A stretch of 64,000 nucleotides of DNA from Scenedesmus sp. PABB004 (Eukaryota): assembly GCA_014905635.1 (NCBI GenBank), contig JABVCE010000012.1, forward strand, positions 868,001 to 932,000, written 5' to 3'. Position 1 is the stretch's first letter; every line of letters starts with the position of its first letter. Shown here piece after piece: positions 1,111 to 33,992 of this stretch. The translations under genes were made by a program, and so were the position numbers. The notes under the pieces were generated by a model, which was not told the origin of the DNA, made no database searches, and worked only from the letters and a program-made list of their open reading frames with translations.

Positions 1111-4100
1111 ATGCGCGCCCGCGCGGCAGCGCTGCAGTGGGCGGTGTGGGCCGTCGCCGCCGTTCTCTTCGCCGCCGGCGGCGCCGACGCCTGCCGCTGC
1201 ACCAGCTACGACGTTGCTAGCGTGGAGGAGTGGCTCTGCGCGCCCTGCGACCTGGGCGCGACGGACACGGCCACGCCCGACGCGGCGTGCGTGACCGCCG
1301 GCGCGGAGTGGCGCACCGCGTCCTGCATGCTCAAGTACCGCTGGGACCAGCTCGTGGCCGCCCAGGGCTTCAACTCGAGCGTGGACTACATCCAGATCGG
1401 CGCCGACGACCGCGCGGTCAAGGTGCGCGCTGCTGCGCCGTGCTGTGCGCTGAGCGCGCGCCCGCGCGCGCCGACGCCCCCGGCCGGCGCGCGACGCCGC
1501 CGCCCCCGCGCGACGCCGCCGCCCCCGCGCGCCCGCGTGCGCCGCAGCTGTACAAGGACAACGTCAAGTGCCTTTGCGCGGCGTACGGGCTCAACGGCAC
1601 CGCGGTCACGCTCACGCAGCCCGCCGTGACGATGGCCGCAAAGTGCGAGCCGGCGTGCCGCAGCCGCGGCGCGGCGTCGGCGCCGCACGCTTCAGCGCTG
1701 CCGGGCCTGGCGCGGCAACGCCGCGCGCGCCGCGCCGCCGGCGCGCCCCACAGGAACCCCAAGGCCGGCTGCCCCGCCAAGGGCAACCGCGGCGCTGACG
1801 ACGCCTGCGAGCTCGGCACGTGGCGCGTCGGCGGCGCCGGCAACCTGACCGGGCTGACTGCCTGCGGCTGCACCGACTGCTGGGGCCGCTGCGACATGAC
1901 GACCACCGGCACCTGCCCCACGTCCAGCTGCATGGCCAACATGCTCGGCACGGAGGAGAACAACTGCCCCAACAGCGCCAACGTGAGCGGGGGCGCCGCT
2001 GGCAGCGTTGGCTGCGGGGGCGGCTGCGGCAGCAGCGCCTGCCGCACAAGGCTCCCGGCGGCCCCGTTCACCGCCCGCTCGCGCCCCGCCCGCCCGCCCG
2101 CAGTGCCCCGTGGCCGGCAAGGGCGCCACGTGCGAGAAGATCCTCGCCAGCTGCTCCGGCAACAAGTGCCTCGGCACGGTCAAGTGCGGCAACGGCTTTG
2201 ACTGCGGCGCGTGGCAGGGCGTCGCGTTCTTCTTCGACGGCGCCAGCAACAACTGGAAGGTCTGCTCCTCGGCCGCCTGCGCGGGCGGGCCCGACCCCGT
2301 GCTCACTGACGAGCCGGAGACGTGCAGCCTGCCGACCTGGTACGGCTACGCCCTGCCCAACATCGCGGGCGTCGCCTACACGGCGCCGGCGTGCACCAAG
2401 GCCGACAACACCGCGTGCACCAACTGCGTCGGCAGCTGCTGCCTCGACGACGGCAAGTGGTGAGCTGCCGCGGCCGGCGGCACCGCCGCCAGCAGCTGGC
2501 CGGCGCCTGCGCGGCGCGCACGCGCGCGGCGCGCACGACCGTACCCGCCCGTCGCTGACCCCCCTCTGCGCTGCACGCGCGCGCGGCCTGCAGCCCCTTC
2601 ACCAGCTGCGCCGCGAGCGGCCTCGGGACGGAGGAAGGCCTCTGCGGCGCCGGCAACAGGTGAGCGCGGGGCGCCACGCCCCTGTGTGTGGCCGGGACCA
2701 GCCCCGAAGCCTTCCCACGCTGAGGCGCTGAGCCAACTCCCCTGTGCTGCCTGCTGCCTGCCTCGCAGGAAGCGGTGCCCGGCGCCCGACGGCGAGTGCG
2801 CGCTCGCGGTGACCAACTGCGTGCCGACCAGCACCGTGCCCTGCCTTGGCAAGATTGAGTGCCCACAGAACAAGGCCTGCCCGGGCTGGGAGGGCTCGCC
2901 GTGCCTGAGGATTGACAACGCCGTGAGTGCGCAGCAGGCCCGCGGCCGGCGCCGCGCCGCGCAGCCAGCACAGCTGCGCGCTGCCGCGCGGCCGGCGGGC
3001 CGCCGCGCCGCGCGTAGCGCGCTGAGCCGCCCGCCCGCCCGCCCGCCCGCCCGCCGCCCGCCCGCCCGCCCGCCCGCCCGCCCGCCCGCCCGCCCGCCCG
3101 CCGCCGCCCGCCCGCCCGCCCGCCCGCCCGCCCGCGCCCGCCGCCCGCCCGCCCGCCCGCCCACCTGGCTGCTGCAGCCGAAGCGGTGGAAGGCGTGCTG
3201 GGACCCCGCGTGCGACGCCGCGACGGGCGACGCCGCCAACAAGGTGACCGACGACGACCCCTGCTCCGGCAAGGTCAGCAAGGTCGGCAGCGCGAGCGAC
3301 CCCTGCGTGTACCCGATGTGGCGCTGGAGCGCCGCGGCCACCAATTTCTCGCAGCGCGGCTACGTAGGGCGATGCGCGACGCCCGGTGCAAACGGCTGCG
3401 TGGGCAACTGTGATGGCCTGGGGGCCCCCTGCCCGAGCAGCAGCTGCCACGCAAACGCCCTGGGCGACGTGGAGATCAACTGTCCGCACAGCGCCAACTG
3501 GTGCGATGGCGGCATGCCCTCGCGCTGCGCAGCGCGCCATGCCTGGGCCGGGCCGCGCGGCGCGGCGCGGCGCGACGCGCTTGGCGCGCGGCGCAGCCGC
3601 CCTGAGCCGGACACGCGCGCGGCGGCCGCCGCCGCCGCCGGCACACGACGCGCAGCCCCGTGAAGCCCTCGGGCTCCGCGACCATCACCTGCGACGTGGG
3701 CGCGTGCTCCGGCCCCCACTGCCTCGGCTTCCTCAGCTGCTCCACGCCGGCCGACTGCATCAAGGGCAGTGGGCCCTCCCAGGTCAACTTCAACGGCGTG
3801 ACCTGCTTCATGGACGGTGCGGCGCCGCCGGGCGCCAGGCGCCAGCCTCGCGGCCGCCCGCGCGCAGCCCCGGCCGGCGCCTGCGCGCGCGGGCGCACGC
3901 TCGTGACGCAGCGCCCCTGCGCCGCGCGGGGGGCCTCTGCTCGCAGGCGTCTCCGGCAACTTCAAAATCTGCACCTCCCCTGCGTGCAACGCCGCCCTGG
4001 GGATCGCCTCCCGCATGGCGCCCGCGCCCCGCACGCAGACGCCCGGCAAGGGCCGCGGCCGGCCGCGCGGCCTGCTCACCGCCGGCGGCGCGTCCGCCGC

Positions 4101-7100
4101 GCTCGGCGCGGCGGGGCCGCGCCCGGCGGGCCGCGCGCTGCTGACCAACCCCAACCCCAACGCGAGCAAGGGCCGCGGCCACGGGCGCAAGTTTGCCAAG
4201 CTCACGCGCACGCTGGGCAAGGGCGACATGGACAAGGCCTGCTCCAACGCCGGCGACATGCCGTCGCTCGAGGAGCTCGGCGGCGAGGGCTTCCTGCGCA
4301 CCGTGGCGCTGCGGCTGTCGGTGCTCAAGGACCGCGTCGAGAACAAGGCCTGTGAGGACGCGGGCCTGCCCGTCACCTACCTCGACGAGCTGGTGCGCGC
4401 ACCGCCCGCCCGCCACCTACTCGCTCTGACCGCACGGGCGGCCGCCTGGCCCGGCCGGCACAGCGGCCCGCCAGCAGCCCAGCACGCCCACCGCGTCGCC
4501 GCCGCCGCCGCGCGCAGGCGCTGACCAACACCGCCAACCCGGAGTGCAACTGCCAGAGCGCGATGACGCTGCTGGAGATGATGGACGCTGACCTGGCGGA
4601 CGTGCAGCTGACCATGACGGCGCAGGTCTCGGCCGACCTCGGCCTGCCCATGGAGTGGTGCGCGTACTGCGCGGAGGCCTTTGAGCAGCTGCAGCTCGCC
4701 GGCTTCGCCGGCCGCCGCCGGCTGCTGACCGGCACGACGACCGTCATCGACGCGACAAACCCGGCCAACAACGGCACCTGCCTCGTGCGCGCGCGCGCGC
4801 GCGCGGCCGCCGTGCGAGGCGGGGTCCCTGCGCCAGCGCGCGCCGCCCACCGCGCCGCGCACCGCCCGCAGGTCGTGCAAAACGCGCCGTCCACCTTCAC
4901 CCTGCCCACGATCGCGAGCGTGAGCACCTCGCTGGCCCTCATCCTCACGCCCAGCGCGACCGAGCTGGTGGGCACCGCCATCACCGTCACCGCGACCTAC
5001 CAGGAGGCCACCGGCACCAACGCGCTCGCGCCCGTGGCCGGCCAGACGATCACCTTCACCGTCAGCAGCGGCAGCCCGGCCCAGGTCACCGCCGTCACCG
5101 ACATCAACGGCATTGCCACGGCGACGGTGACCCGCGCCACGCCCGTCACCCTCACCGTCATTGCCTCGACCGCCGACAGCTCCGGCAACGCGGCAACATC
5201 CGCCCCGGCGACTCTCACCTGGTACTCGCTGGTCTACACGGTGCTGCAGCCCAGCAGGACGGTGGGGCAGACCTCGTCAGTGTCGGCATCGCTCAACTGC
5301 GGCAGCAGCCCCGCGCCGGGCGCCACCATCACGTTCACGTTCAAGCTGCCCAACTCCAACACCGTGGTCGCCGCCCAGACCTGCACGTGCGTCACGGACG
5401 CGACCGGCGCCTGCACCGCCACTGTGCCCGCGAGCGCCACGGCCGTGGTTTACAATGCGTTTGCTGCCACGAGCAACGTCTGCAGCGGCACCAACTCCGT
5501 CACCGGCTCGCTGACCAACGGCAGCCCCCCGGACGTCACCTGGGTGACAGCGCCGGCGCCTCCGCCGGGCCCCAACCCGCCCAACCTGCCCCCGGGGCCG
5601 ACGCCTCCCGGCCCTACGCCGTCGCCTGGGCCTACGCCGCCGGCTAGCCCTGCACCGCCCAACTCGCCGCCCCCGGCGCTGCCGTCGCCCAGCCCCGCGC
5701 CCCCGGTGGTGGTGCCGCCGCCGTCGCCCAAGCCGGTGGTCTCCCCGGCGCCCACGCCGTCGCCTGCGCCTGGCCCTGACCCGGAGCTGGGCCTGGTGCT
5801 GGTGCTGGTGCCCAGCGCCCGCGAGCCTGTGCGCACGACCGTTACCGTGTCGGCCACACTCACCTCGGGCGGCGCGGCCGTGGCGAGCAGCGGCGTGCGC
5901 TTTGCCGTTGACTACGACGACGGCACCAGCGCCACGCCGTCGCGCACCACCTCCGCGAGCGGTGTGGCTACCCTGGACCTGGTCCGCGACGTGCCGCGCA
6001 CCGCAACCGTGACCGCGTCTGCGGCTGTCGATGGCAAGCCGGTGTCCTCGACGGCGGTCAGCATCGAGTGGTACGTGGATCCGATCGACCCCACCGGCAC
6101 TGATGAGCTGATGCTGTCGGTGCTGGACCCGCTGGTGCCCGTGGGCGACAGGGCGGCCGTGCAGTGCTTCTACACCGTCGACGGCAAGGCCGTCGCGGGC
6201 GCGCAGGTCTCCTTCAGCCTGTCCGACCCCAACACCGGTGCGCCGGCGGGCCGCACCTACTCGGCCCTCACGGACGACCTGGGCGTGGCGCGCGTGAGCG
6301 TGGACGCCAGCGACGTGCCCCTGGTGCGCAACGCCGCCTGCTCGACGACCAACAGCCGCGGCAGCATCGTGAAGCACACGCTCAACCCCGGGAGCCTGCC
6401 CTCCATCACCTGGGTGGACCAGCGGCTGACCATCTCCCCCGACAACGTGCGCCTGCCGCTCGGCACGCCCTCCACCGTCTGCGCCGAGTACACCGAGGGC
6501 GGCTCCGTGGCGGGCCGCACCATCACGTTTGCGGTCGTGTGGGCCGGCGGCGCCAAGGCGTCGCTCACCGGCACCACCGACGCGAGCGGCCGGGCCTGCG
6601 TGCCGCTCAGCAGGGACGCCACCACCGACGACTCTGCGACCGTGCGCGCGACCACGACCAGCACGCGCAACAAGCCCGTGTCGTCGGTGTCTGTCGGCGC
6701 GGGCGCCAGCCCCGACGCCAGCTTCACCACCATCACCTGGTACCCGCCCGGCGGCGAGGAGCTCATCCTGTCGGTGCTGGAGCCGCTCGTGTCGGTGGGC
6801 GAGCCCGCGACGGTGCAGGCGCTGTACCGCGTCAACGGCCAGCCCAAGCCCAACGTGCCCATCAGCTTCCAGCTTGTCAACCCCGAGTCGCTCGCGCCCG
6901 AGGGGCCGATCTATTCTGGCATCACCAACCAGCAGGGCATCGCGATTGTGCAGGTCGCGGGCAGCAAGGCGGTGACGCTGAAGCTGGTCTCCGCGTCCAC
7001 GCAGAGCAGGGGCAGCGGGCTGCCGCTGACGGCCTACCTGGAGCCGGCCAGCCCCAACGCCATCCGCTGGGCAGCCGAGACGCTGGTGCTGACGCTCAAG

Positions 7101-8801
7101 CCCTCGGCGCGGGTGCCCATCAACACGCGCGTGTCCCTGTCCGCGACCTACAAGGAGGGCGCCGCGGTGCGCGGCCAGGCCATCACCTTTGCCATCACCT
7201 ACACCGACGGCACCAAGGACAGCCAGACCGCCGTCACGGGCGCCGGCGGCGTCGCGACCATCGTGCTGGTGCAGCCCAAGGCCGTGATCGCGACCGTGAC
7301 CGCGCGCACCACCAGCAGCCGGGGCGTGGCCGTCAGCTCTGTGTCGCAGGGCGACGGCGCCGCCGACAAGGGCGGGTCCAGCCGCGTGGAGTGGTTTGGC
7401 GCCGGCCCCGAGCCGCTGCTGGCGCTCTCCCTCGTGCCCGACGCGCGCGTGCCGGTCAAGACCACGATCACCGTGTCTGCGCTCTACACCGAGGGCGGCA
7501 AGCCCGTGCCGCGCCGGCCCATTGCCTTCACGTTCACCTTTGCCGACGGCACCACGCGCCTCGTGCGGGGCCGCACCAACGTGCAGGGCCGCGCCAAGGC
7601 GAGTGTGGTCCGCCCCGACGTGATCACGGCCGAGGTCACCGCGGCGACCACGTCCACGGCCGGGCGCCCCGTGTCGTCGACCGACAACTCGGCCGCGCCC
7701 AATGGCGGCAAGGCGCAGCTCTCGTGGTTCACCAACCTCACGACCGCGAGCATGCAGATGTCGCTGCTGCTCACCAAGGCCCTGGGCATCGTGGACCTGT
7801 CCTGTGCCTCGCTGTCGCGCGGCAGCCTGGGCACCGCGCTGGCGGGCGGCGTGCGCGACGACGTGTCCCGCCGCGCTGCCGCTCTCACCAAGCGCGCGAC
7901 GGCCAGCCACCAGGTCAACAGCACCACGAGCCAGTGCGTCGACAAGGTGAGGGCTGCTGCCGGGAGCGGGGCTGGCGCGTGAGCGCCCGCCGTGGAGTGC
8001 CAGCCCTCTGCCTGCTCTGCGCAGCACGCGCAGTGCCCTCCTCCTGCTCTCACACGCTGCTGCCCTGCCGCGCCGCGCTGCCCGCGCCACCCGCAGGGCC
8101 CCGCCGGCGTGGAGGTCTGCTTCACTGTGACCTTTGACGGCGTCACTGCTGACTTTGCCAACGTGCAGCTGCCTCAGATCACCAAGGACGTCACGTCGCA
8201 GCTCACGCAGGACACCGCGTGCGGCGCGCTCAACCGGACCTGCGCCGCGCTGAAGAACCAGCTCGTCAGCATCGGCGGCGCCTGCAGCGCCGCCAGCACC
8301 CAGTGCTGCACAGCGTCGCCCTTCCCCGTCAACCCCAGCGGCGGCGGCGTCTGCCCGCTGGGCCCCGGCGACAGCAAGCCCGCCGCCACGAGCGCCAGCC
8401 TGTGGACCGGCACGGTCGTGCCGGTGCGGGGCGGCAGCTGCACCGTGATGGCGTGCAACGTCCTCAAGGGCGAGGCCTGCTTCCCCTTTGCCGCGGACAT
8501 CACGCAGCAGTCCAAGACCGTCGGCTCCGCCACGGTGTCGTGCGTGGGCGGCAAGGTGGTCGGCTCCTTCACCGCCGCGCCCGGGTTTGCGCTCTCCAAC
8601 GCGCGCGTGCAGTCGGTGTGCGGCGAGGCTCCGACGTACTGCCCCGAGCGCGTAAACAAGCGCAGCAGCGGCGTCACGCCGGTGGCCACGCCGCTGTCCA
8701 ACCCGCTGGCGGTGGCAGGCCTCGGCGTGGAGAGCTGCCTGTGCGAGAGCGGCTGCGCGCCGTTCATTTGGGTCGACGCCGAGGTGGCAGAGGCCTGCTA
8801 G
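1111..8801 (+). CDS. Paralog A: secreted Cys-rich / Big-1-like Ig-repeat protein (~2062 aa, 12 exons)
   Basis: Exons 1111-1422, 1548-1642, 1754-1982, 2104-2459, 2594-2659, 2769-2922, 3178-3500, 3656-3816, 3947-4392, 4518-4784, 4872-7946, 8097-8801. All introns are GT-AG and the exons sum to 6189 nt in frame. Signal peptide MRARAAALQWAVWAVAAVLFAAGGADA; three Cys-rich repeats; 8 ~100-aa repeats with the pattern TVTATY..V.G..ITF..TD..G.AT....TVTA..W; Pro hinge; no TM segment. Confidence 0.85.
3027..3161. repeat. (GCCC)n microsatellite in intron 6 of paralog A
   Basis: Near-perfect gcccgcccgccc tract visible in the sequence. Confidence 0.9.
4890..8798 (+). repeat. Left arm of a ~3.9-kb near-identical inverted repeat (partner ~23691-27931)
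   Basis: The translations of ORF 4563..7982(+) and 24359..29134(-) are almost residue-for-residue identical from LPT.ASVSTSLAL to QCVDK. The last intron and last exon also match. Confidence 0.92.
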
Positions 8802-10157: not shown

Positions 10158-11611
10158 TCACGGGCGGTCCTCGGGGTCATCCATGGCCAGCACGAAGAGG
10201 TTGCCCTTGTCGCCGCGGCTGCGTGGGGCGTGCAGGAGGGGGCGTGGGGCGCAGCGGGCGCACGGCGCGCGCGGCGGCGCGGCGAGCCCGCGGGCGCGCG
10301 GGGCGCGCGGGGCGCGGCGCGGCGTGGCGCGGCGCGGCGCGGCGCGGCGCGGCGCGGTGCGGCGCGTGAGCGCGTGCCTGATGCGCAGGTCCTCATCCAG
10401 GTAGGTGATCTCGAGCTCGCCTGCGTCAGGGGCAAGGGTTGAGTCAGTGCCGTCAGCCAATGCCAGGGCCGGCGCGGCCGGGCGCGCGCGCGCGCGCATG
10501 CTCGCGCGGGGCCCGCGCGGCGCCTGCCGCCGGCGGCGCCGCCGCCGCACCGCGCGCCGAGGGCGGGGCGGTGATCGGGATGAGACCGAAGATCTTGAAG
10601 GTCTTGAACTGCGTGTGCCGGTTGTGAGGGTTTAGAGCCAGGGTTGCAGGGTGGACGCTGCCCCCGGCACGACGCGGCGTGCACGCGCTCGACGGCAGCA
10701 GCGCTGCACGCTGCGCCGCGCCCATCACCTGCACGGCGACCTTGGACGGCGACAGCGGCGTGAGCGCCGCCGTCACCTGCGTGCGGCGCGCGGCGCGGCG
10801 CGCGGCTCTGTCGGGGCGGCCCCGCGCACGCGCTCGCGCACGGACCGCGCGTTGGCTGCGCGGGCGGGGCCCGGCACCCCGTCCCCAGCCCCCACCCCCA
10901 CACACCTGGTTGTACAACGGTGAGGTCTCGCGGTTGGCTGCCGTAAGGTTTTGGCCGTCTGTCGGCGGGCGCGGCGCGCGCGCGCGGCTCGGCGCGGGGC
11001 CGGCGCCGCCAGACGGCCGCGCCCCGCCCCGAGCCCCGCCCCGCCCGCGCGCACCGCGGCCGCCGCGCGCGCGCCCGCGCCCGCGGCCCGCGCGCGCCCT
11101 GCAGTCGCCGCGCGGCGCGCGCCGCGCCTGCGGCTCACCCAGGAGCTGGTAGATGGGGCCGGAGGGCCGCAGGAGCGCGGGCTTGCTGGACCCCAGGATG
11201 GAGCCGCTGGTCGTGTAGAGCAGGCGCCAGCGGCCGCTCAGCAGCGGGCTCTCGAGCGGCCGGCGCGTGGGGTTGAGCCGCTCGAGCGCACCCGCGGCCG
11301 CCTCGACCTCCGCGGCATCCGACGGGCCCGCCGCGAGGCCGCGCTTGAGCGGCGCAATGAGGCCCAGCAGCTGCGGCGGCGGCGGTGCAGGGGGGTGTGT
11401 GCCGGCGGAGCTGCCCGGCGGCGGGGGCGGCTGCGCCGCCCGCGCCGCCAAGCCGCACGTCCTCCTTAAGCTGCTCCCGCTGCTCGGACGCCTGGCCGCC
11501 GCCAAAGGTGGGCAGCTTGAGGCCGAACAGCGCGCGCGGCGCCACCAGCGCGCCGCGGCGCCGGCGAGGCGCGGCGCGCGCGGCGCGGGTCGCGCTCGGG
11601 GCGACCTGCAT
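10158..11611 (-). CDS. Plastid lipid-associated protein / PAP-fibrillin (FBN3-like), multi-exon
   Basis: Transit-peptide-like MQVAPSATRAARAAPRRR. Spliced motifs [60 protein letters not shown] are typical of PAP_fibrillin. The last intron is GC-AG (10377-10219). Confidence 0.9.
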
Positions 11612-12219
11612 GGCAGCAGGGACGGGCCTGGCGCGCAGCCGCCAAGCGCGGCGCGTGAGAGCGGGGTGGGCGCGCGGCGCGCCGCAGGCGCGCCGGCTGC
11701 TGAATCCGCGCAGCAGCAGCGGCGCGCTGCAGCGCTGGCGCGGCGTGCGGCCGCTGCCTGCCCACGCGGCATGCTGACGTCGGCGATCGGCGCCGGCGTG
11801 GCGCGCCGCGGGCAGGAGCCGCTCCGCGTCCGCAGAAGCAGCGGCGCACCTGCGGCGCTGCTGCCGTCCAGGCGCCTGCTGCTCAGGCCGCGCGCCCGGC
11901 GCGTGCGATCTGCTGTCGTGCGGAGGGTACGACCGGTCCGGCGGGCTGGACGGGCGACGCGCCCGACGGCGGGCGGCGACGCGCGGCAGCGGCGGCGCTG
12001 TGTGGAGCGGCTGGCGCGCGCGGCGGCTGGCGGCCAGCCTGATGCAGCTGTGCAGCTCGGGGTGTGCGCTGGCGGCCGGCCAGAGATTTGCAGCTCAGCC
12101 AAGCTGCCTCGTGCGGTTCACACAGCCCTGCGCAGCGGGGAGCCCTGCGCACGGCCTGACACCCGCGCGGCGGGTGTGCGTGTATGTCGTTGTTTGCGGT
12201 GGGTGTTGAGTGGGTGTCG

Positions 12220-12224
12220 TTACA
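12220..12224 (-). promoter_or_regulatory. Candidate TGTAA poly(A) signal for paralog B
   Basis: TTACA on + (TGTAA on -), ~1 kb downstream of the stop at 13263. Confidence 0.25.
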
Positions 12225-13262
12225 ACGCATTGGTTTGCCTGTTCTATGCGTCAACCTGCACACATTGCAAAGCGATGGCACGGGTGGGTGCCCTCCGTGC
12301 GTTGAGCTATACCAGCCATTCCGGGCGCCGTCTCCGCCCCGCCCCGACCCACGCGTGCCAGCCGTTCCGGCCCGGAGCAGGTGTGTAAAAGCCAGGGTGC
12401 GCGCGCTCCGCGCAGCCCACCCCGGCCGTGTGTGCGTGACGCCGCGCCGCCGGCTGGAGCAGCCAGCCCCCGCACCGTTGTTGGTCTTTCCCTAGCCAGC
12501 GCCGTCGTGGTCTAGCCAGCGCCGGCTTCAAGGCAGGGCGCCCCGCACGGGCGCAATGCGGCCAGCCCAGGGTGCACCTCCGGGAGTTCTCTGCCCAAGC
12601 AGCGGGCCGCCGCTGCCGCGGTAGGGCCCGCCGCGAGGGGCCGTTTATTGATCAGTCTGGGGGAACGGGAGACGGGGTGGGTGACACGATCGCGGGGCCG
12701 AGGGCCCCAGGGTGCGGGGCCAGCCCCGCGCGCTGGCCGGGGCCGCCGGTGTTATGGTAGGTCCGCCAATGTCATAGAGTGACATGGTGCAGCATGCGCA
12801 GGGGAGGGCATGGCAACGCGCCACCCCCGGGGGAGCCTAGCAGAGGTTGAAAGAGGAAAAAAACGACACACAGGCCGGGCGGGGGCGCGTCCCACAAGGG
12901 ACAGGCAGGCGCACCAGGGGAGCGCCACTGCGGCGCCACGCTGGAGCAGCACGCCGGCGGCAGCGCCGCCACTAACCGCCCCTGCTAAGCCCGTGCCCAC
13001 CAGGCACAGCATGCATTGCGCGCCGTCGCGGTACTGCAGTCCCAGTCCCAGGGCCCAGGGGCCATGCAGGCCCCAGCAGGCGGCCGGCCGCCTGACGCGG
13101 GCCGCGCAGCCGGCAGGCTGACACGGCCTGCCGCGCGACGGGCCTGGCAGCAGGCCCGTTTTCTTCCCCCGCCCGCCGGCGACCTCCGCCATGTCAAAGA
13201 CCGAGCCTTTAAGGAGTGGAAGAAAGATCACAGCAGCAGCAGCCCGAGCTGCACGCGGCTGG

Positions 13263-21076: not shown

Positions 21077-23687
21077 GCCTCGCCGCGGGCCGCCAGCAGC
21101 GCCCGGCGCGCGGGGCGGCCGGGGGATTGCCAGGGTGGCCGTCGCGGCCGCTGCGCGCGGTGGGGGGCCTGAGGCGGCCGATCGCCGGGGCCACGGCCGT
21201 TCGCGGGGTGGTGTGGGGCGCTGGGGCGACTGCTGACGTCCCTCGCGCGGCGCAGCGGCAGGCGGGCGCTGCCCGGTTGTTGAGGTGCTGCGCTGCGGCG
21301 CTGCGGCGGCGCGCGCTGCCTCGCGGTGAGCGGTCTGGATGCGGCCGGCTCGCCGCGCAGCAGAGGAAGGGCGGGCGGGGTGCGCGGGGCGCGCCGGGGT
21401 CGCCGGGGTCGCACATGGTGAGGTCGCACAAACCGAGGCCCGCGATGCACGGGCTCCCCCCGCCCTGCGCCGACGCCAGCAGACTGCATGGACGCCGAAT
21501 TGCAGATATAACGGGCACGAACGGCCCCACCCCGCCTGCTGCCGCCGGGGGGCGTTCTGTCAACTCGGCGGCCCGCGCCTTCCCCGCGCCCGCCGCGCGC
21601 AGTACCTAGGTTGCGTGCTCGAAATCGCCGCGGCCGCGTAGGCACAGCTGGCGGGCGAGGGCACTGGCCCCTTGCTGCGGCGGGCGGCCGGCGGCGGTGG
21701 CGGCCAGCCGGGGGCGCGTGCGTGTCTGTTCTCGGCTTCCCGCCGCGTGTGCCGAGCTCGGTGGCCGCGCACGAGCGCTGGGCGGTTCGCGCAGCAGCGC
21801 GGCGGCGGGCGGGCAGCAGCAGCCAACCGGTGACGTTGCGGCCGGGACGTTGCTGCGGCGGCAGCTTTCCCCCCCACCTCTGGCCCCCGTGTCCCCGCTG
21901 CCGCGCCCCAGGCGGCGCAGCGCAGGCCGCCGGCGCGCTCTCGGGGCTGGGCACGCCGCACGCCTGGGCGGCCACGGCCGAGGCCAGTCCGCTGCGGGCT
22001 GGCCGCCCGCCGACGCAGCGCCGGTGCACCGGGCCGCCACGAGTCCGAGCTTGGCCCTGCGGCCTCGCGGCGCCGCGTGTGACCTGCAGCAGCAGCCGCC
22101 CTGCTCAGCAGCCCGTCGCGTGCCGTGACACGCTGCCGGCGCTGCGCACGCGCGGTGCCAGCTGGCTGCCGCAGCGGCGCGAAGAACCGCCGCGTGGGTG
22201 TGTTACTGCTCAACATGCATTAATAGCCATAGCCGCCGCCGTGTTTGAGACTCCAAGGCACGGGCAGGCGCGTGCAACAAGCTGGCCCGCACGGGAGGCC
22301 CCGCCCCCACCGCGCGGGAGGCCCCGCCCCCACCGCGCGGTGCTGAAAAGCCCTGCAGTGACCGAGGTGCCACATGGTGCCATGTCAACGCGGCCCCCGT
22401 GGGGCCAGCGCCGCCGCGCGGCTCTGGCGCGCTGCGCGTTCCAGGTGGCGAGCGCGCGCGTGCAGGCTGCAGCAGAGCGCGTATAGAGCAGGAGAGGGGG
22501 GCGGCGCGGGCACACGGCGCGCCCCGCGACACCCGCGCCCTTTCAGGAGACGCCAACACCCGCCGCCAACACCCGCGCTCCCTTGGTCATGGTGCCCTTG
22601 CCGCCCGAGCACACTGAGAGATGGCGTGAAAAGACGCCGCAGCCACCCGCGTGCGCGCGGCGGCGGCGCCGGCACGCGAGCACGCTCCCCCGTGGCGCCG
22701 TGGGGCAGCCCGCCCAGCCGGCCCCGCACTGCGGCTGCCGTCCCACACACAGCAACCGCCCCACAACCCACGCGCTTGACCAATCGCTGCCCCACGTCCG
22801 CTTGCCGCTGCCGCCCCAGGGCATTCATCCAGCCGGCCGGCCTGCCACGCGCGCGTACGCCGCAGCGCCGCTGCAACGAGCAGGGCAGGGCAGCAGACGC
22901 GCTGCCACGCAGGGCCTAGCCGCTGCGTCCTGCAGCGGGCTGCAGTGCGCGCGCGCGCGATGCAAAGGTGCCCCTTTCTGCGCACGAAGCGCCGGAGCTA
23001 TTCACACAAGTGCGCACACTATGTTGAAAGAAGTAAAACTGCGGTACAGTAAAAGAAAGTCTTAAAAAGAGCCACAGCCGGGATGCCTTCCGGCTGCGGC
23101 CCTCCGCAAAGGAAGGCAGGTGCCGCCGTCGCCGCGCGCAGTCCGGGGTGCCGCTGATGGAGCCAAGGAAGGCGGTCGGTCGCCCAGACGGGGCGCAGTG
23201 CCGAACACACAACTCGAACCAGCCGGCACGATGTGCTGGGCACCCCACGCCGAAACACCACGACGTCACACACACGGCTCGCGCCGCAGTCTGCAGTGAG
23301 CCGTCAGAGCCAGCTGCGGACCCGAGCGCGACCAAAGCGCCCCCGCTGCGCAGCAGCAGCCGTGCAGGGCCGCGCCGTGCGGCGCTGCCGCGCCGTGCGC
23401 GACCGAGTCGGCAGTCAACGGGTGCGCGCCGCGCAGCAAGGCGCTGTGCAGCGGAGCATGCAGGCCTTGTTGTAGGGCGCTGGGCTCGCCATGCCCGCGC
23501 GCATGCATGCGCAAGTATTTGAAGGCAGGTTCCGCAGCGGCGCCGGCTGCCGCTGGCCAACCGGCCCGCGGGTGCTCTTGGCAGACAGCAGTGCAGTGCC
23601 GCCCCTTTCGGCCGGTGCTCACGGCCGCCGCCGCCCCCCACGCGGCAAGCCGCCCGAGTTCCCAACGCCCGCTGGTAGCGATGCCGA

Positions 23688-26600
23688 TCAGCAGGCCTCT
23701 GCCACCTCGGCGTCGACCCAAATGAACGGCGCGCAGCCGCTCTCGCACAGGCAGCTCTCCACGCCGAGGCCTGCCACCGCCAGCGGGTTGGACAGCGGCG
23801 TGGCCACCGGCGTGACGCCGCTGCTGCGCTTGTTGACGCGCTCGGGGCAGTACGTCGGAGCCTCGCCGCACACTGACTGCACGCGCGCGTTGGAGAGTGC
23901 AAAGCCGGGCGCGGCGGTGAAGGAGCCGACCACCTTGCCGCCCACGCACGACACCGTGGCGGAGCCGACGGTCTTGGACTGCTGCGTGATGTCCGCGGCA
24001 AAGGGGAAGCAGGCCTCGCCCTTGAGGACGTTGCACGCCATCACGGTGCAGCTGCCGCCCCGCACCGGCACGACCGTGCCGGTCCACAGGCTGGCGCTCG
24101 TGGCTGCGGGCTTGCTGTCGCCAAAGCCGAGCGGGCAGACGCCGCCGCCGCTGGGATTGACGGGGAAGGGCGACGCCGTGCAGCACTGGGTGCTGGCGGC
24201 ACTGCAGGCGCCGCCGATGCTGACGAGCTGGTTCTTCAGCGCGGCGCAGGTCCGGTCGAGCACGCCGCACGCGGTCGCCTGCGTGAGCTGCGACGTGACG
24301 TCCTTGGTGATCTGAGGCAGCTGCACGTTCGCAAAGTCAGCAGTGACGCCGTCAAAGGTCACAGTGAAGCAGACCTCCACGCCGGCGGGGCCCTGCGGGC
24401 GGCGGCGCGGGCAGCGCGGCGCGGCAGCGGCGTGTGAGGGGGCGGGAGGGGGCAGCGTGCACGTGCTGCGCAGAGCAGGCAGAGGGCTGGCACTCCACGG
24501 CGGGCGCTCACGCGCCAGCCCCGCTCCCGCACAGCAGCCCTCACCTTGTCGACGCACTGGCTCGTGGTGCTGTTGACCTGGTGGCTGGCCGTCGTGCGCT
24601 TGGTGAGGGCGGCCGCGCGGCGGGACACGTCGTCGCGCACGCCGCCCGCCAGCGCGGTGCCCAGGGTGCCGCGCGACAGCGAGGCGCAGGACAGGTCCAC
24701 GATGCCCAGGGCCTTGGTGAGCAGCAGCGACATCTGCATGCTCGCGGTCGTGAGGTTGGTGAACCACGAGAGCTGCGCCTTGCCGCCGTTGGGCGCGGCT
24801 GAGTTGTCGGTCGACGACACGGCGCGCCCGGCCGTGGACGTGGTCGCCGCGGTGACCTCGGCCGTGATCACGTCGGGGCGGACCACGCTCGCCTTGGCGC
24901 GGCCCTGCACGTTGGTGCGGCCCCGCACGACGCGCGTGGTGCCGTCGGCAAAGGTGAACGTGAAGGCGATGGGCCGGCGCGGCACGGGCTTGCCGCCCTC
25001 GGTGTAGAGCGCAGACACGGTGATCGTGGTCTTGACCGGCACGCGCGCGTCGGGCACGAGGGAGAGCGCCAGCAGCGGCTCGGGGCCGGCGCCAAACCAC
25101 TCCACGCGGCTGGACCCGCCCTTGTCGGCGGCGCCGTCGCCCTGCGACACAGAGCTGACGGCCACGCCCCGGCTGCTGGTGGTGCGCGCGGTCACGGTCG
25201 CGATCACGGCCTTGGGCTGCACCAGCACGATGGTCGCGACGCCGCCGGCGCCCGTGGCGGCGGTCTGGCTGTCCTTGGTGCCGTCGGTGTAGGTGATGGC
25301 AAAGGTGATGGCCTGGCCGCGCACCGCGGCGCCCTCCTTGTAGGTCGCGGACAGGGACACGCGCGTGTTGATGGGCACCCGCGCCGAGGGCTTGAGCGTC
25401 AGCACCAGCGTCTCGGCTGCCCAGCGGATGGCGTTGGGGCTGGCCGGCTCCAGGTAGGCCGTCAGCGGCAGCCCGCTGCCCCTGCTCTGCGTGGACGCGG
25501 AGACCAGCTTCAGCGTCACCGCCTTGCTGCCCGCGACCTGCACAATCGCGATGCCCTGCTGGTTGGTGATGCCAGAATAGATCGGCCCCTCGGGCGCGAG
25601 CGACTCGGGGTTGACAAGCTGGAAGCTGATGGGCACGTTGGGCTTGGGCTGGCCGTTGACGCGGTACAGCGCCTGCACCGTCGCGGGCTCGCCCACCGAC
25701 ACGAGCGGCTCCAGCACCGACAGGATGAGCTCCTCGCCGCCGGGCGGGTACCAGGTGATGGTGGTGAAGCTGGCGTCGGGGCTGGCGCCCGCGCCGACAG
25801 ACACCGACGACACGGGCTTGTTGCGCGTGCTGGTCGTGGTCGCGCGCACGGTCGCAGAGTCGTCGGTGGTGGCGTCCCTGCTGAGCGGCACGCAGGCCCG
25901 GCCGCTCGCGTCGGTGGTGCCGGTGAGCGACGCCTTGGCGCCGCCGGCCCACACGACCGCAAACGTGATGGTGCGGCCCGCCACGGAGCCGCCCTCGGTG
26001 TACTCGGCGCACACGGTCGAGGGCGTGCCGATCGGCAGGCGCACGTTGTCGGGGGAGATGGTCAGCCGCTGGTCCACCCAGGTGATGGAGGGCAGGCTCC
26101 CGAGGTTGAGCGTGTGCTTCACGATGCTGCCGCGGCTGTTGGTCGTCGAGCAGGCGGCGTTGCGCACCAGGGGCACGTCGCTGGCGTCCACGCTCACGCG
26201 CGCCACGCCCAGGTCGTCCGTGAGGGCCGAGTAGGTGCGGCCCGCCGGCGCACCGGTGTTGGGGTCGGACAGGCTGAAGGAGACCTGCGCGCCCGCGACG
26301 GCCTTGCCGTCGACGGTGTAGAAGCACTGCACGGCCGCCCTGTCGCCCACGGGCACCAGCGGGTCCAGCACCGACAGCATCAGCTCATCAGTGCCGGTGG
26401 GCTCAATTGGGTCCGCGTACCACTCAATGCTGACCGCCGACGAGGAGACCGGCTTGCCGTTGACAGCCGCAGACGCGGTCACGGTTGCGGTGCGCGGCAC
26501 GTCACGGACCAGGTCCAAGGTAGCCACGCCGCTCGCGGAGGTGGTGCGCGACGGCGTGGCGCTGGTGCCGTCGTCGTAGTCAACGGCAAAGCGCACGCCG

Positions 26601-29600
26601 CTGCTCGCCACGGCCGCGCCGCCCGAGGTGAGTGTGGCCGACACGGTAACGGTCGTGCGCACAGGCTCGCGGGCGCTGGGCACCAGCACCAGCACCAGGC
26701 CCAGCTCCGGGTCAGGGCCAGGCGCAGGCGACGACGTGGGGGCCGGGGAGGCCTCCGGCTTGGGCGACGGCGGCGGCACCACCACCGGGGGCGCGGGGCT
26801 GGGCGACGGCAGCGCCGGGGGCGGCGAGTTGGGCGGTGCAGGGCTAGCCGGCGGCGTAGGCCCAGGCGACGGCGTAGGGCCGGGAGGCGTCGGCCCCGGG
26901 GGCGGGTTGGGCGGGTTGGGGCCCGGCGGAGGCGCCGGCGCTGTCACCCAGGTGACGTCGGGGGGGCTGCCGTTGGTCAGCGAGCCGGTGACGGAGTTGG
27001 TGCCGCTGCAGACGTTGCTCGTGGCAGCAAACGCATTGTAAACCACGGCCGTGGCGCTCGCGGGCACAGTGGCGGTGCAGGCGCCGGTCGCGTCCGTGAC
27101 GCACGTGCAGGTCTGGGCGGCGACCACGGTGTTGGAGTTGGGCAGCTTGAACGTGAACGTGATGGTGGCGCCCGGCGCGGGGTTGCCGCTGCAGGTGAGC
27201 GATGCCGACACCGACGAGGTCTGCCCCACCGTCTTGCTGGGCTGCAGCACCGTGTACACCAGGGAGGGCGCTGCCACCCAGGTGACGTCGGGGGGGCTGC
27301 CGTTGGTCAGCGAGCCGGTGACGGAGTTGGTGCCGCTGCAGACGTTGCTCGTGGCAGCAAACGCATTGTAAACCACGGCCGTGGCGCTCGCGGGCACAGT
27401 GGCGGTGCAGGCGCCGGTCGCGTCCGTGACGCACGTGCAGGTCTGGGCGGCGACCACGGTGTTGGAGTTGGGCAGCTTGAACGTGAACGTGATGGTGGCG
27501 CCCGGCGCGGGGTTGCTGCCGCAGGTGAGCGATGCCGACACCGACGAGGTCTGCCCCACCGTCCTGCTGGGCTGCAGCACCGTGTAGACCAGCGAGTACC
27601 AGGTGAGAGTCGCCGGCGAGGACGTGGCCGCGTTGCCGGAGCTGTCGACGGTAGAGGCGGTGACGGTGAGGGTGACGGGCGTGGCGCGGGTCACCGTCGC
27701 CGTGGCCACGCCGTTGCTGTCGGTGACGGCGGTGACCTGGGCCGGGCTGCCGCTGCTGACGGTGAAGGTGATCGTCTGGCCGGCCACGGGCGCGAGCGTG
27801 TTGGCGCTGGCGCCCTCCTGGTAGGTCGCGGTGACGGTGATGGCGGTGCCGACCAGCTCGGTCGCGCTGGGCGTGAGGATGAGGGCCAGCGAGGTGCTCA
27901 CGCTCGCGGTCGTGGGCAGGCTGAAGGTGGAGGATGTGGTAGGCTGCACGGCCTGCGCAGCAACAAGGCGGCGGGCGCCGGCGCGCGCGCAGGGCGAGGA
28001 TGAGGACAGGGGCAGCACAGAGTGCGCCGCGCCGCGCGCCGCGCTGCGCCCGCGCCGCGCCGCGCCGCCGGGCCGCGCCGGCACGCCGCGCCGCGCGCCG
28101 CCCCGCGCGCGCACCAGGCACACGCCGCTGGGCGGGGTGGTGCCGTCAAAGACGATGTATCCGTTTGAGGTGTAGGACAGAAGGCTGCGCCCCTGCGCCA
28201 CCGCGGCGGGGAGGCCGTCGAGCTCGGGGTATGCCGCGTCGGCGTCGCCCGCGCCAAGCAGCCGGCGGCCGGTGTTGGGGCCAAAGCCGGCGAGTGAGAG
28301 CTGCTGCATCATCTGGGTGCAGTATGTGCACCAGTCGAGGCCCATCGTGACGTCGGCCGACACGTTGCCGGCGTTGACTACGACGTCGGCGAGTCCGGCA
28401 TCCATCGCCTCCAGCATCAGCTCGGCGGTGAAGCAGTCGCACTCGGACGTCCCCGCCGACGATTTGATGGCCTGGGCGGGCGCGCGCGCGCCGCGGCGGG
28501 CGGGCGGGCGGGCGGGCGGGCGGGCGGGCGGGCGGGCGGGCGGGCAGGCGGGCGTCAGCGCGGCGCACGCGCGTGGCCACGCAGCCGGCCGGCGGCAGGG
28601 CGGCGGCGGTGCGCGCACCAGCTCGTCGAGGTAGGTGACGGGGCGGTTTGCGTCCTCGCAGGCCTTGTTCTCGATGTGGTCCTTGAGCACCGACAGCCGC
28701 AGCGCCACGGTGCGCAGGAACGCCTCGCCGCCGAGCTCGGCGAGCGCGGGCATGTTGGCCTGGTCGTTGCAGACCTTGTCCACGTCGGTCTTGGCAACCG
28801 CGCGCGTGAGCTTGCCAAACTGGAGGCCCTGGCCGCGGCCCTTGCCGCCACTCTGCACCACCTGGTTGTTGTTCTGGTTGTTGTTGTTGTTGTTCTGGTT
28901 GTTGTTGTTGGGGCTCAGCAGCGAGCGGCCGGCGTGGGCCGGCGCGGCGGGGGCTTCGAGGAGGCCGCGGGGCCGCCGGGCCCTGCCAGGCTTTCCGGGC
29001 TTGGCACCCAGGAGCGGCCCGGACAGGCCGAGGCTGGCCGGGATGACGGCGGGCGTGCGGCCCTGCAGCGCGTCACACGCGGGCGAGGCGCAGACCTTGT
29101 AGTTGGACGACTTGCCTGCGGCGGTCGGCGGCAATGGTCAGCAATGCGCGCACCGCACACACTGCACAGCGCACGCGCCTGCCCGGCTGTATGCTGGGCA
29201 GGCCCGACGAGGCGGCCTGCCGGGCCAGCGGCGCGGCGCGCGCACCATCGTAGAAGCAGGGCATGCCGTGCCAGTTGAAGCCGTTGTTGATGCACGTCCC
29301 GCCGGGGCAGTTGAGCCAGCCGAAGCAGTGCGGGTCGGTGCAGGTGCCCTGCTTCTGGCACACCGCGCCCGCGACGCCGCGCACGGGGCTGCGCCAGGGG
29401 CGGCGCGGGCGGGTTGAGTCAGCAGGGGAGAGGGGGGCGGTGCTGCGGCGTGCTGCGGAGCGCGGTGCGGCTGGCGCGGCGCAGCCCGCTCGTCGCACCA
29501 GTTGGCGGAGTTGGGGCAGTTGAGCTCCACGTCTCCCAGGGCGTTTGCAATGCAGCTGCTGCTCTTGCAGTCGCCGAGCGGGTCGCAGTTGCCGATGCAC

Positions 29601-31956
29601 GTGCGCGTCGTCGGCGTCTGGGTGGTGTCGATGGTGCAGCGCCCCGGGTAGCCAAACTGATCGACGCCGGTAAAGTCTGACTTGTAGCGCCAGCCGGGGT
29701 AGGTGCAGGCGTTGGCGTCGCCCTTCTTGCCAGACTTGCCGTTGCAGGTGTCCTCGGGGACGGCGGCGGGGGCGGGGCGGCCCGCGGGGGGCGCGCACGC
29801 GGGGTCCCAGCAGACCTTCCAGTTCTGCGGGCGGGGCGGGGCGTGTGCATGTGTGTGTGTGTGTGTGTGGTGTGTGTGTAGGGGGGGGGGGGTGGTGCGG
29901 CGGCAGCGCTTCTGCAGCCACCGCCGGCGCCGCAGCTGCTTTCTCGCCCGCCCGCCCGCCCGTACACGCGAATGCTCACGTTGCTGGCCCCGAGTTGAAA
30001 GCAGGTCGCGCCCTGCCAGGCGGGGCAGGCGGTGCCCTGGCAGTTGACCGTGCCGATGCACTTGAGCGCGTTGGGGCCGTTGCGTGCGGTGCAGTTGGCG
30101 TTCAGCACGCACTCGGCACGGTACGTGTTGTCCTTGACCGGGCACCTGCGCGCAGCCGCCGGCGGCGGCGGCCGGCGGCGGGCGGGCGGGGGCGGCGCGC
30201 GCTCAGCTGCGGCGCGCCGCAGCCGCGCGCGTGTCCCTCTGTCAGCCCCGCGGCGCCCAGTCAGCGGGGGGCCTCGGCACGCTCGCCGCACCTGGCAGAG
30301 TTGGGGCAGTTGGCCTGGTCCGTGCCGAGGCCGTTGGCAATGCAGCTGCTGGTGGGGCTGCGCGCGCGGTCGCGGCGGCGGCGGCAGGGCGGCGTCGTCG
30401 ACGCTCGAGCGGCAGAGCGCGCCCGGCCGGCACGCGCGCGCGCGCGGCAGCGGCGCCCGAGTGGCCGGCGTGCTCACCAGGAGCCGTCGTCGAGGCAGCA
30501 GTTGCCGACGCAGTTGGTGCACGCGGTGTTGTCGGCCTTCTTGCACGCGGGGCCCTGGTAGTTGGCGGGCGCCTGGTAGTTGTACCATGTCGGCAGGCTG
30601 CACGAGTCGGGCGTGTCGGTCTCGGCGGGGTCGGGCCCGCCCGAGCAGGCGGCCGATGAGCAGACCTTCCAGTTGTCGCTGGCGCCGTTGTAGAAGCACG
30701 CAACGCCCTGCCACGCGCCGCAGTCAAACCCGTTGCCGCACTGCACCTTGCCGAGGCACTTGTTGGTGCAGCCCGAGACGAGCGGCACGCACGTGGCGCC
30801 CTTGTCGGCCACGGGGCACTGCGGGCGGGCGGGGGCGCGAGCGGGCGGTGAACGAGGCCGCCTGCAGCCTTGTGGGGCAGCTGCCGCAGCCGCAGCTGCG
30901 CCCCCCTCCCCCCTCCCGCCACCCCCGCCGCAGCCAGCGGTGCCTGCTCACGTTGGCGCTGTAAGGGCAGTTGTTCTCCTCCGTGCCGAGCATGTTGGCC
31001 ATGCAGCTGGACGTGGGGCAGTCGCCCGTGCCGGTCGTCTTGCAGCGCCCCCAGCACGTGCCGGCAGAGCCGCCGCCCCTGCAGTTGGGGTCCTCATAGC
31101 CAGTCAGGGCGCCGGCCCCGCCCACGCGCCACGTCGGCAGCAGGCAGCTGTCGCCGGGGTTGTTGGCGTCGTTCCCAGCGTTGCCCTTGCCGGGGCAGCC
31201 GGCCTTGGGGTTCCTACGTGCGGGGGCGCGATGCGTGCAGGCGCCGCGCGCGTCGGCCCGCCGCCGCGCCGCGCCCCCGCGCGCAGGCCAGCGAGCCGTT
31301 GCCGCGGAGCTGCGGGGCCACGCGCGCGCGCGCCGGCGCCGCCGCGCACCCCTGCGACTTGGGCGTCGTGGTCGTCGGCGCGGTGATGGTCACGGTCGTG
31401 TTGCTGAGGGAGTAAGCCGCGCACATGCACTGCAGCGCCTGCTTGGTGAGCTGCAGGGCGCGGCGCGCGCGCGCGGACGGCGGCGTCCGGTGGCGAGTCA
31501 GTGACGCCGCGCCCCGCGGCCGGGCGCCGTCCACGGCCCGGCGCCGCGTCGCGCGGCCGGGCGCCGCCGCGCTCGCCGGCGCGCCGTGCCGGCGCGGCGG
31601 CCGCGCTGCGAGGAGCGCGCCGCCCCTCCGCGCACCTGGATCGTGCGGTCGGCGGTGCCGACCTGGATGTAGTCCACGCCCGCGCCCAGGCCCTGGGCGG
31701 CCACGAGCTGGTCCCAACGGTACCGGAGCATGCACGACGCGCTGTGCCACTCCGCGCCTCCGGTGACGCAGGCCGAGTCGGGCGTGAACGAGTCCGCCGC
31801 GGTCAGGTCGCAGGGCGCGCAGAGCCAGTCCTCCACGGAGCTGAACTTGTACGAGGTGCAGCGGCACGGCGTGACCGTGGCCTCGCCGCGCGGCGCCGCG
31901 AGCAGCACCGCGGCCAGCGCGGCCAGCGCGGCCAGCGCCGCGCGCGGACGGGCCAT
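23688..31956 (-). CDS. Paralog C: secreted Cys-rich / Big-1-like Ig-repeat protein (9 Ig repeats)
   Basis: Signal peptide MARPRAALAALAALAAVLLAAPRGEA then CRCTSYKFSSVEDWLC. Exons correspond to those of A. Asn/Gln tract. The stalk is nearly identical to A plus one extra Ig unit. Ends FIWVDAEVAEAC-TGA. Confidence 0.85.
23691..27931 (-). repeat. Right arm of the ~3.9-kb inverted repeat (includes an extra 330-bp unit)
   Basis: Reverse complement matches 4890-8798 with scattered substitutions. Confidence 0.92.
26941..27596. repeat. 330-bp near-perfect tandem duplication (one Cys-containing Ig domain)
   Basis: 26941-27266 and 27271-27596 repeat at an offset of exactly 330 nt (e.g. cacccaggtgacgtcgggggggctgc at 26945 and 27275). 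Confidence 0.93.
28497..28553. repeat. (GGGC)n microsatellite in an intron of paralog C
   Basis: Visible in the sequence. Confidence 0.85.
29850..29892. repeat. (TG)n microsatellite plus G-run in an intron of paralog C
   Basis: tgtgtgtg... followed by a run of ~12 G. Confidence 0.85.

Positions 31957-33955: not shown

Positions 33956-33992
<37 letters not shown>

Follow-up and report, generated by a model that had tools for sequence, protein, structure and literature searches.

What do three very large, related genes at one locus of Scenedesmus sp. PABB004 encode, and to what kind of extracellular system might their products belong? The genes, called A, B and C here, lie between positions 1111 and 31956 of a 64,000-nucleotide stretch (assembly GCA_014905635.1, contig JABVCE010000012.1, positions 868,001 to 932,000 of the forward strand), referred to below as the window and used for all coordinates. 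Their products are read as secreted glycoproteins of rod shape that belong to the cell wall or the extracellular matrix of the alga, with a probability slightly above even (about 0.55). This answer was derived from the sequence in the steps that follow, together with the alternatives that compete with it.

Gene models

The first 33 kb of the window had a G+C content of 70-81% and contained 129 open reading frames (ORFs) of at least 150 amino acids (aa) over all six frames. Since long ORFs occur everywhere in such GC-rich DNA, ORF length was by itself poor evidence, and the ORF sets of A, B and C were distinguished by their related translations and mutual DNA matches. Models were built by spliced protein-to-DNA alignment against a Scenedesmus homologue (P0001), and junctions were refined by hand. 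Gene A (1111-8801, plus strand, ATG at 1111) comprised 11 exons encoding 2044 aa with no internal stop: 1111-1422, 1548-1654, 1754-1982, 2104-2459, 2769-2922, 3178-3500, 3656-3816, 3947-4392, 4518-4784, 4872-7946 and 8097-8801 (including the stop). Gene B (21076-13263, minus strand) was assembled from 14 exon pieces encoding about 2018 aa with one frame break: 21076-20723, 20512-20430, 20118-19833, 19703-19342, 19226-19161, 19059-18882, 18792-18461, 18345-18200, 18060-17640, 17499-17475, 17364-17026, 16871-15762 and, after the break, 15759-14110 and 13964-13263. Gene C (31956-23688, minus strand, ATG at 31956) comprised 11 exons encoding 2208 aa: 31956-31636, 31450-31350, 31213-30952, 30818-30478, 30145-29980, 29824-29499, 29388-29246, 29115-28619, 28471-28115, 27952-24545 and 24392-23688.

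Introns were of the GT-AG type in 10 of 10 cases in A, 10 of 10 in C and 11 of 12 in B (31 of 32 overall), the one exception being a GC-AG intron that precedes a 25-nt exon of B. Intron positions were common to the paralogues, for example at SAN/CPV in the heads and at GACAAG/GTG ahead of the tail (slash, junction). The chosen frames had a G+C content of 0.94-0.95 at third codon positions (GC3), compared with about 0.60 at the first two positions. Two introns that are in frame and free of stops (A 4785-4871 and C 28114-27953) are probable, not proven; they were placed from their GTGCGC...GCAG ends, from the Arg/Ala-rich peptide that reading through them would give and from the breakdown of similarity between A and C. 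Further "introns" of 45-47 nt and one of 342 nt in C, forced by the template, were rejected as insertions or an extra repeat relative to P0001.

Overall architecture and secretion

The three proteins shared one order of parts: a hydrophobic N-terminus, a CRCTSY cap, three Cys-rich modules, a linker, a putative helical module, beta repeats split by a hinge, and a Cys-rich tail. Each carried about 95 Cys, arranged in a conserved framework. Hydrophobicity was scored in 19-residue windows with a Kyte-Doolittle mean of at least 1.6; windows above this value were confined to the first 15 residues of each protein (residues 5-7 in A), so no transmembrane segment was found elsewhere in A, B or C. The N-terminal stretch is a predicted signal peptide that would route each protein into the secretory pathway, and the proteins look secreted and extracellular. 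The first-pass annotation of this DNA, made from the letters alone, had described secreted proteins and listed these elements. The elements were found where it had placed them, the ATGs of A and C being its exact limits, and secretion is supported by the leader, by the lack of any other hydrophobic segment and by the composition of the Pro-rich hinge.

A stalk of Big_1-type repeats

Beta repeats of 96-120 aa numbered eight in A, seven in B and nine in C. In A (plus strand), the pre-hinge repeat R1 (4932-5225) was of Big_1 type (E = 4.1e-8), and R2 (5226-5546), a Cys-containing variant, had no Pfam match and could be aligned along its whole length to the other repeats. The post-hinge repeats R3-R8 (5787-6074, 6075-6416, 6417-6743, 6744-7073, 7074-7397 and 7398-7730) each matched Big_1 singly (E = 4.4e-5 to 7.1e-3), giving 7 of 8 A repeats with a match of their own (16.9-33.7 bits, E = 4.1e-8 to 7.1e-3). 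The order in B was R1, R2a, R2b, hinge, R3, R4, R7 and R8, without R5 and R6. Scored against the Big_1 family (PF02369, curated cut-off 34.9 bits), A reached 78.3 bits, C 71.7 bits and the post-hinge part of B 64.1 bits, in 7, 7 and 4 stretches, respectively; the pre-hinge part of B by itself scored 31.9 bits, under the cut-off.

The 15 repeats of A and B could be aligned from end to end, five columns (P, F, T, G and W) being invariant, which indicates that they are variants of one unit. When a profile of these 15 repeats was searched against the PDB, intimin (6tpl_A, E = 1e-8; 6tqd_A, E = 6.3e-4; 1f00_I, E = 8.2e-3) and invasin (1cwv_A, E = 0.047) were all among the top five of 11 matches listed. 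A single-sequence phmmer search of the PDB with the A stalk gave low-complexity Pro-rich matches only. The alternating units R4 and R6 also matched DUF6795, MG4 and YtkA weakly. An assignment to alpha-2-macroglobulin-type MG proteins was rejected, the MG3/MG4 scores (11.8-18.2 bits) being below their cut-offs (23.1-24.7 bits) and the repeats concerned aligning with the Big_1-type units. By homology the repeats are Big_1-type Ig-like units, which supports a beta-sandwich fold; the match to the Big-1 fold of invasins and intimins that had been read by eye from the repeat pattern was borne out by the Pfam scores above cut-off and by the profile matches in the PDB. Tandem units of this kind would form a semi-rigid stalk, as in the bacterial proteins.

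Inverse autotransporters (invasin, intimin) likewise present a binding domain on a tandem Big_1 Ig-like stalk, and they are what the repeat profile matched best in the PDB. In contrast to them, A, B and C had no beta-barrel or LysM anchor (no such Pfam match at E <= 1 in ORFs, head exons or P0001) and no C-type-lectin-like tip by Pfam, and the tail exon had no family match. Here the chain opens with a leader of eukaryotic type and then Cys-rich domains, the variable end is N-terminal, the genes are eukaryotic and intron-bearing, and the proteins carry a Pro-rich hinge and Cys-rich ends. Judged by domain content, they share only the Big_1 stalk principle with inverse autotransporters and are not members of that group.

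The Pro-rich hinge and the comparison with algal wall proteins

The hinge followed the second or third repeat. It was 51% Pro in every case, with a length of 63 aa in B and of 80 aa in both A and C. In A (5547-5786, plus strand) it contained 41 Pro and 8 SP dipeptides and resembled hydroxyproline-rich glycoproteins (HRGPs); the hinges of A and C held 8 SP and 3-4 PPP, and that of B consisted of GP-type repeats with 0 SP. Such a hinge would be hydroxylated and O-glycosylated to give a stiff polyproline-II (PPII) segment, as in other chlorophyte HRGPs.

The chlorophyte HRGP proteins of wall and matrix (pherophorins, algal-CAM, GP1-3 and the sexual agglutinins) are secreted and modular, with Cys-containing globular ends and a Pro-rich rod, and form gene families. 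A, B and C are alike in having a secretory leader and a Pro-rich segment, in being modular and in forming a gene family; they differ in that the Pro-rich part is short (63-80 aa) and the rod consists mostly of Ig-like repeats. We know of no Ig-like-repeat rods from pherophorins, algal-CAM, GP1-3 or agglutinins, nor of a characterised member that combines a Big_1 rod with this head module and tail. The pherophorin domain (presumably PF12499) had no match at E <= 1 in Pfam scans of ORFs, exons, P0001 and P0002. The earlier impression that the proteins are unlike pherophorins and agglutinins therefore holds, in that neither the pherophorin family nor any other characterised family in Pfam matched head or tail. 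From their leader, hinge and modular build, A, B and C appear to belong, in a broad sense, with the secreted and modular HRGP-type proteins of chlorophytes.

The head

In A, leader and cap occupied 1111-1654 (plus strand). The cap, found in A, B and C as CRCTSY...[ED]WLC, was about 110 aa long with 8 conserved Cys, and 8 of its 9 Cys columns were common to the three proteins. Three Cys-rich modules of about 130 aa each followed in every protein (A, 1754-4050, plus strand). They were delimited by alignment, with introns at SAN/CPV and near /NWK, and had the consensus C..W..G..C.G.C..CPTSSC.AN.LG..E.NCP.SANCPV..C..C..CLG.V.C..C..W.G..CF..G.S.NWKVC.S.AC. Among A, B and C, the N-terminal half of module 2 (CPTSSC.AN.LG) was complete in B only. 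Over cap and modules, 55 of 64 Cys columns were common to A, B and C at a non-Cys identity of 0.34-0.41, suggesting a picture of a fixed disulfide frame with variable loops. Cap and modules would together form a distal, ligand-binding end, the choice of tip rather than anchor coming from conservation alone.

The head exons matched no Pfam family at E <= 1, and 0 of 41 head-module sequences matched one at E <= 0.01; a head-module profile had 0 matches at E <= 1 among PDB sequences, and an ESM Atlas query with the head protein P0006 gave no usable match. An alignment of whole heads (71 rows) was poorly aligned and was not used for folding. One module (module 3 of P0003, 41-row alignment) was modelled with AlphaFold2 (AF2) at a predicted local distance difference test score (pLDDT) of 69.3 and a predicted template modelling score (pTM) of 0.65. 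No similar solved fold was found for this model (best values, E = 0.77 with Foldseek against the PDB and Z = 2.2 with VIA-align on 48,161 chains), which is no proof of a new fold.

The tail

The tail was about 300 aa long with 19 Cys and ended in Cys. In A it comprised a pre-intron segment (7731-7946) and the last exon (8097-8801, plus strand; 17 Cys, terminal Cys). A, B, C, P0002 and P0003 all shared the terminal Cys. Over their last 150 aa, A, B and C were 92-99% identical. The tail exon matched no Pfam family at E <= 1, and phmmer with the tail against the PDB gave one chance row only (E = 0.51). In the ESM Atlas the best score was 0.79, under the useful range, and two scans of metagenome contigs gave no confirmed relative. 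A search for the tail among longer proteins returned none at E <= 1e-3 and also missed the known relative P0002, which makes it a weak negative. The AF2 model of the tail (8 sequences) had a pLDDT of 41.9 and was unusable.

These ends bear on the alternative that survives best, in which the proteins are a structural wall polymer and not adhesins: intermolecular disulfides between the Cys-rich ends would link the molecules end to end into a lattice or a layer within the wall of Scenedesmaceae, the Ig/PPII rod acting as spacer, a logic like that of gel-forming mucins and von Willebrand factor. It would agree with the odd Cys totals of the mature proteins (A, 93; B, 97 with the leader Cys removed; C, 97), with the conserved terminal Cys and with the tail being the most conserved part. 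However, Cys parity is weak evidence, A having simply lost one framework Cys, and the tail model is too poor to judge such a polymer. We regard a structural polymer as possible and less likely than a rod-shaped wall or matrix glycoprotein.

The putative helical module and its linkers

Between head modules and stalk, A encoded a basic, Gly-containing linker with G-R-x-L-L motifs followed by the putative helical module (4050-4784, plus strand), delimited by conservation and motif counts. The module, LGGE.FLR.VAL.LSVLKDR.EN.ACED ... EC.C ... WC.YC, was conserved in A, B, C, P0001, P0003, P0009 and P0039, and its exon matched no Pfam family at E <= 1. Motifs of the form R.LL numbered three in A (residues 588, 610 and 763), two in B (666 and 841) and four in C (603, 617, 788 and 814), and all nine lay in the two linkers that flank the module (in A, about 4050-4200 and 4700-4760). 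Shuffled sequences gave means of 0.3-0.4 motifs (P = 0.008 for A, 0.034 for B and 0 of 500 shuffles for C). The linker of C carried an Asn/Gln-rich run (N4 Q N6 Q N3; 28874-28945, minus strand) without counterpart in A or B, where local G+C fell to 0.62 against about 76% for the window.

The linker motifs resemble processing sites of subtilases or S1P, and A, B and C might accordingly be pro-proteins that are cleaved around the helical module by an enzyme of this kind, leaving head and stalk-tail as separate molecules. The clustering above shuffled expectation is consistent with this, as are four R.LL motifs at the same places in P0001. Plant pro-pectin-methylesterases are reported to be cut by subtilases at RKLL/RRLL motifs (bioRxiv 10.1101/2022.07.28.501549). 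In contrast, a single motif was present in P0003 and none in P0002, which is truncated at the N-terminus, and matching a motif does not amount to being cleaved; a pro-protein is judged improbable.

Relatives and prior description

A search with the long exon of C, in which 8000 candidates were scored, returned two proteins at E <= 1e-3, P0001 (48% identity) and P0002 (42%), and no bacterial protein at that threshold. P0001 ("STR1", Scenedesmus sp. PABB004) had a leader, CRCT.Y...WLC and the entire architecture. Its public model is fused to a downstream rhodanese gene, from which the name derives; the rhodanese part was recognised as a gene-model fusion because P0002, P0003, A, B and C end right after ...VDA.V...C. 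Relatives in Tetradesmus obliquus (P0002-P0004) were annotated as "Big-1 domain-containing protein", OEZ85_014414 and OEZ86_005786, and the head relatives with a named source were three T. obliquus proteins.

P0001-P0004 and A, B and C were alike in the order of leader, CRCT.Y cap, three Cys modules, helical module, Big_1 repeats and a tail ending ...VDA.V...C, with identities of 42-48% in the stalk and 44-47% in the head, and of 64% (P0001) or 44-45% (P0002-P0004) in the tail. P0003 differed in repeat number (3037 aa), and P0002, an N-terminally truncated model, lacked the head. A Pro-rich stretch stood at the hinge position of P0001, and by eye no long hinge was evident in P0003. Module 1 of P0003 (residues ~270-285) lacked the ...G.ACFY.GAS... 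segment seen in all other modules, probably through a misplaced splice site in the annotation.

With the P0001 head (757 aa), an exhaustive HMMER search found 42 matches at E <= 1e-3 among 1.84 billion representatives, 11 of them at E <= 1e-10 and 1 at E <= 1e-30. Most were short, and some covered the cap alone (P0016, P0017, P0026 and P0036), a module alone or the helical segment alone. P0005 (T. obliquus OEZ85_011408, 4172 aa) carried at least six head modules between SP-rich linkers; unlike A, B and C, it had no Big_1 (SpaA_2, 19.8 bits, under cut-off) and no frame of cap, helical module and tail. P0035 had half a head module beside a right-handed beta-helix (PF13229, 34.4 bits, cut-off 25.9), and P0009 (750 aa), which lacks a Big_1 stalk, combined a module with the helical segment and with a tail that shares 32% identity with that of A. 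These varied partners point to the head module as an extracellular domain that moves between proteins within a small group of algae. A modular kit may be at work, the same module being joined to other partners (HRGP mosaics, a beta-helix protein) in Tetradesmus and in metagenome proteins.

No paper on these proteins or this family was found in the full-text literature, subscription journals and supplements lying outside its coverage. Full-length homologues are already public as automatic predictions in Scenedesmus sp. PABB004 and T. obliquus, none of them characterised. The suggestion that the system was undescribed stands as far as papers go and fails for the databases, where full-length homologues are listed as "Big-1 domain-containing protein" and as the mis-fused "STR1".

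Evolution of the three copies

A and C are inverted relative to each other. A 5225-8799 and C 27266-23690 were 97.8% identical over 3583 aligned columns (blastn), a tract of about 3.6 kb that spans intron 10, and a further 665-bp block (A 4890-5554, C 27931-27267) was 96.4% identical; head DNA of the two genes aligned in pieces only, at about 80%. Between A and C, synonymous divergence (dS; Nei-Gojobori, NG86) stood at 0.43-0.47 for the cap, the modules and the helical part, and fell in the stalk to 0.08 for the repeats ahead of the hinge and to 0.03 for those behind it; the tail gave 0.05-0.07. Intron 10 was 91% identical, introns 1-9 were 46-77% identical (shuffled control 63%) and 300-nt flanks 61-66%. 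Because stalk dS is low and intron 10, inside the tract, is well conserved while introns 1-9 are at background level, the likeness of the A and C stalks is attributed to recent gene conversion or partial duplication and thus not to stronger constraint.

At the protein level, B was 50-66% identical to A and C in the stalk and 45-64% in the head, and the heads of A and C were 56-61% identical to each other. The last 150 aa were the exception, dS among A, B and C falling to 0.09. The ratio of nonsynonymous to synonymous divergence (dN/dS) was about 0.7 nearly throughout, in heads and B stalk alike, save in this last part; with GC3 near 0.95, NG86 dS is probably understated and no claim of positive selection is made. 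The proposal of diversified heads on a conserved stalk thus held for the pair A/C only, through the conversion or duplication tract, and failed for B, whose stalk has diverged like its head. Repeats were gained by tandem duplication, as detected with Tandem Repeats Finder (TRF): a 330-bp unit in C (x2.0, 98% matches; 26937-27596, minus strand), giving the extra repeat R2b, and a 339-bp unit in B (x2.0, 83%). Gene conversion may hold A and C uniform in stalk and tail, and all three copies uniform over the last 150 aa; repeat number would shift by tandem duplication.

These patterns also bear on a role in cell-cell recognition during mating or coenobium formation, with paralogue-specific heads giving specificity and a form like that of Chlamydomonas sexual agglutinins or FLO/ALS proteins. 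Clustered paralogues whose heads differ to the extent given above would suit such a role, and both repeat-number variation and gene conversion, typical of adhesin families, are present; in addition, the family members detected that have a named source all come from coenobial Scenedesmaceae. Yet the PPII hinge of 63-80 aa contrasts with the long HRGP shaft of agglutinins, and the narrow taxonomic range may reflect the limits of the searches. Dedicated recognition proteins are considered improbable.

The frame break in gene B

In the hinge of B (15749-15844, minus strand), two overlapping ORFs in different frames indicated an apparent frameshift at about 15760-15762, the frame that reads R1-R2b differing from the frame that reads R3 onward. 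TRF found an imperfect 47-bp tandem (x2.0) spanning the break; deleting one 47-nt unit in silico restored an unbroken Pro-rich frame, and any 1-nt gain or 2-nt loss would be equivalent. Unrepaired, the upstream frame reaches a stop 73 codons on; downstream of the break GC3 was still 0.95. No GT was present between 15848 and the AG at 15659. The sole in-frame GT-AG interval, GT(15848)...AG(15658), was rejected as an intron on account of its poor donor and the loss of hinge and invariant Trp of R2b that it would cause. From these features B would either contain an assembly error in a stretch of low complexity or have lost its reading frame very recently.

Two freshwater-metagenome DNA runs of one study covered the locus in small shares (0.15 and 0.12), with short contigs on 12800-32100 that were 90-99% alike; none of the contig pieces listed there visibly spanned the B hinge. 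A single 1073-nt contig linked a B-like stalk piece (15221-15396) to a C-like one (25380-26276), and would represent either a rearranged paralogue of a related strain or an assembly cross-over among repeats.

Neighbouring genes and simple repeats

A fragment of a PAP_fibrillin (plastid lipid-associated protein) gene lay between A and B (10456-12117, minus strand; PF04755, E = 1.7e-14); a plastid fibrillin gene at this place supports a photosynthetic eukaryote as the source of the DNA. Directly upstream of C was an ORF with a DUF815/AAA-type P-loop domain (32546-34021, minus strand; PF05673, E = 2.6e-11). Microsatellites of (CCGC)n/(GGGC)n were located at 3027-3162 (plus strand) in intron 5 of A and at 28474-28554 in intron 8 of C, and account for many short blastn cross-matches.

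Weighing the interpretation

Bacterial contamination or chance ORFs in GC-rich DNA can be set aside as highly improbable: the many long ORFs in six frames and the mainly bacterial occurrence of Big_1 would speak for it, but are outweighed by the near-uniform GT-AG introns at paralogue-shared positions, the high GC3 in one frame only, full-length homologues in two algal genomes, the fibrillin gene between A and B, and the failure of the C-exon search to return a bacterial protein.

Several points weigh against reading A, B and C as rod-shaped wall or matrix glycoproteins. Head and stalk could be cut apart after secretion at the G-R-x-L-L motifs. The near-invariant tail would be the common attachment or assembly end, an orientation suggested by conservation alone, and special diversifying selection is not demonstrable for the heads. 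The apparent frameshift of B may mark it as a pseudogene. A has Phe at 2227-2229 (plus strand; ...GVACF...) where B, C and the homologues keep a framework Cys of module 1, which leaves the partner Cys unpaired. Finally, the model of the head module is of moderate confidence and that of the tail poor.

Implications

With these points taken into account, a secreted, rod-shaped glycoprotein of wall or matrix is retained as the preferred reading. A more specific version is put forward tentatively and is thought unlikely as it stands: A, B and C would form a lineage-specific surface display of coenobial algae, in which stalk and anchor are kept uniform by conversion and different heads of an undescribed disulfide-rich fold set cell-cell or cell-substrate specificity in colony formation, flocculation or mating. 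If true, the family would be an algal counterpart of invasin-type and fungal FLO/ALS adhesins, with a construction based on an Ig-like domain that is elsewhere typical of bacteria.

The locus contributes two domain types without a Pfam family (head module and tail), the head module also being without a fold match, Big_1 Ig-like repeats that probably serve as a stalk in a eukaryote, and what looks like clear-cut gene conversion over part of two inverted paralogues. At the molecular level, hardly anything is known of the wall and matrix proteins of Scenedesmus-type algae, even though these algae are cultivated widely and serve as models of colony formation. As harvesting and cell disruption depend on the wall, the family offers concrete candidates for wall, adhesion and colony functions, and, if the heads are ligand-specific, algal cell-cell recognition would be directly testable at the A/B/C locus.

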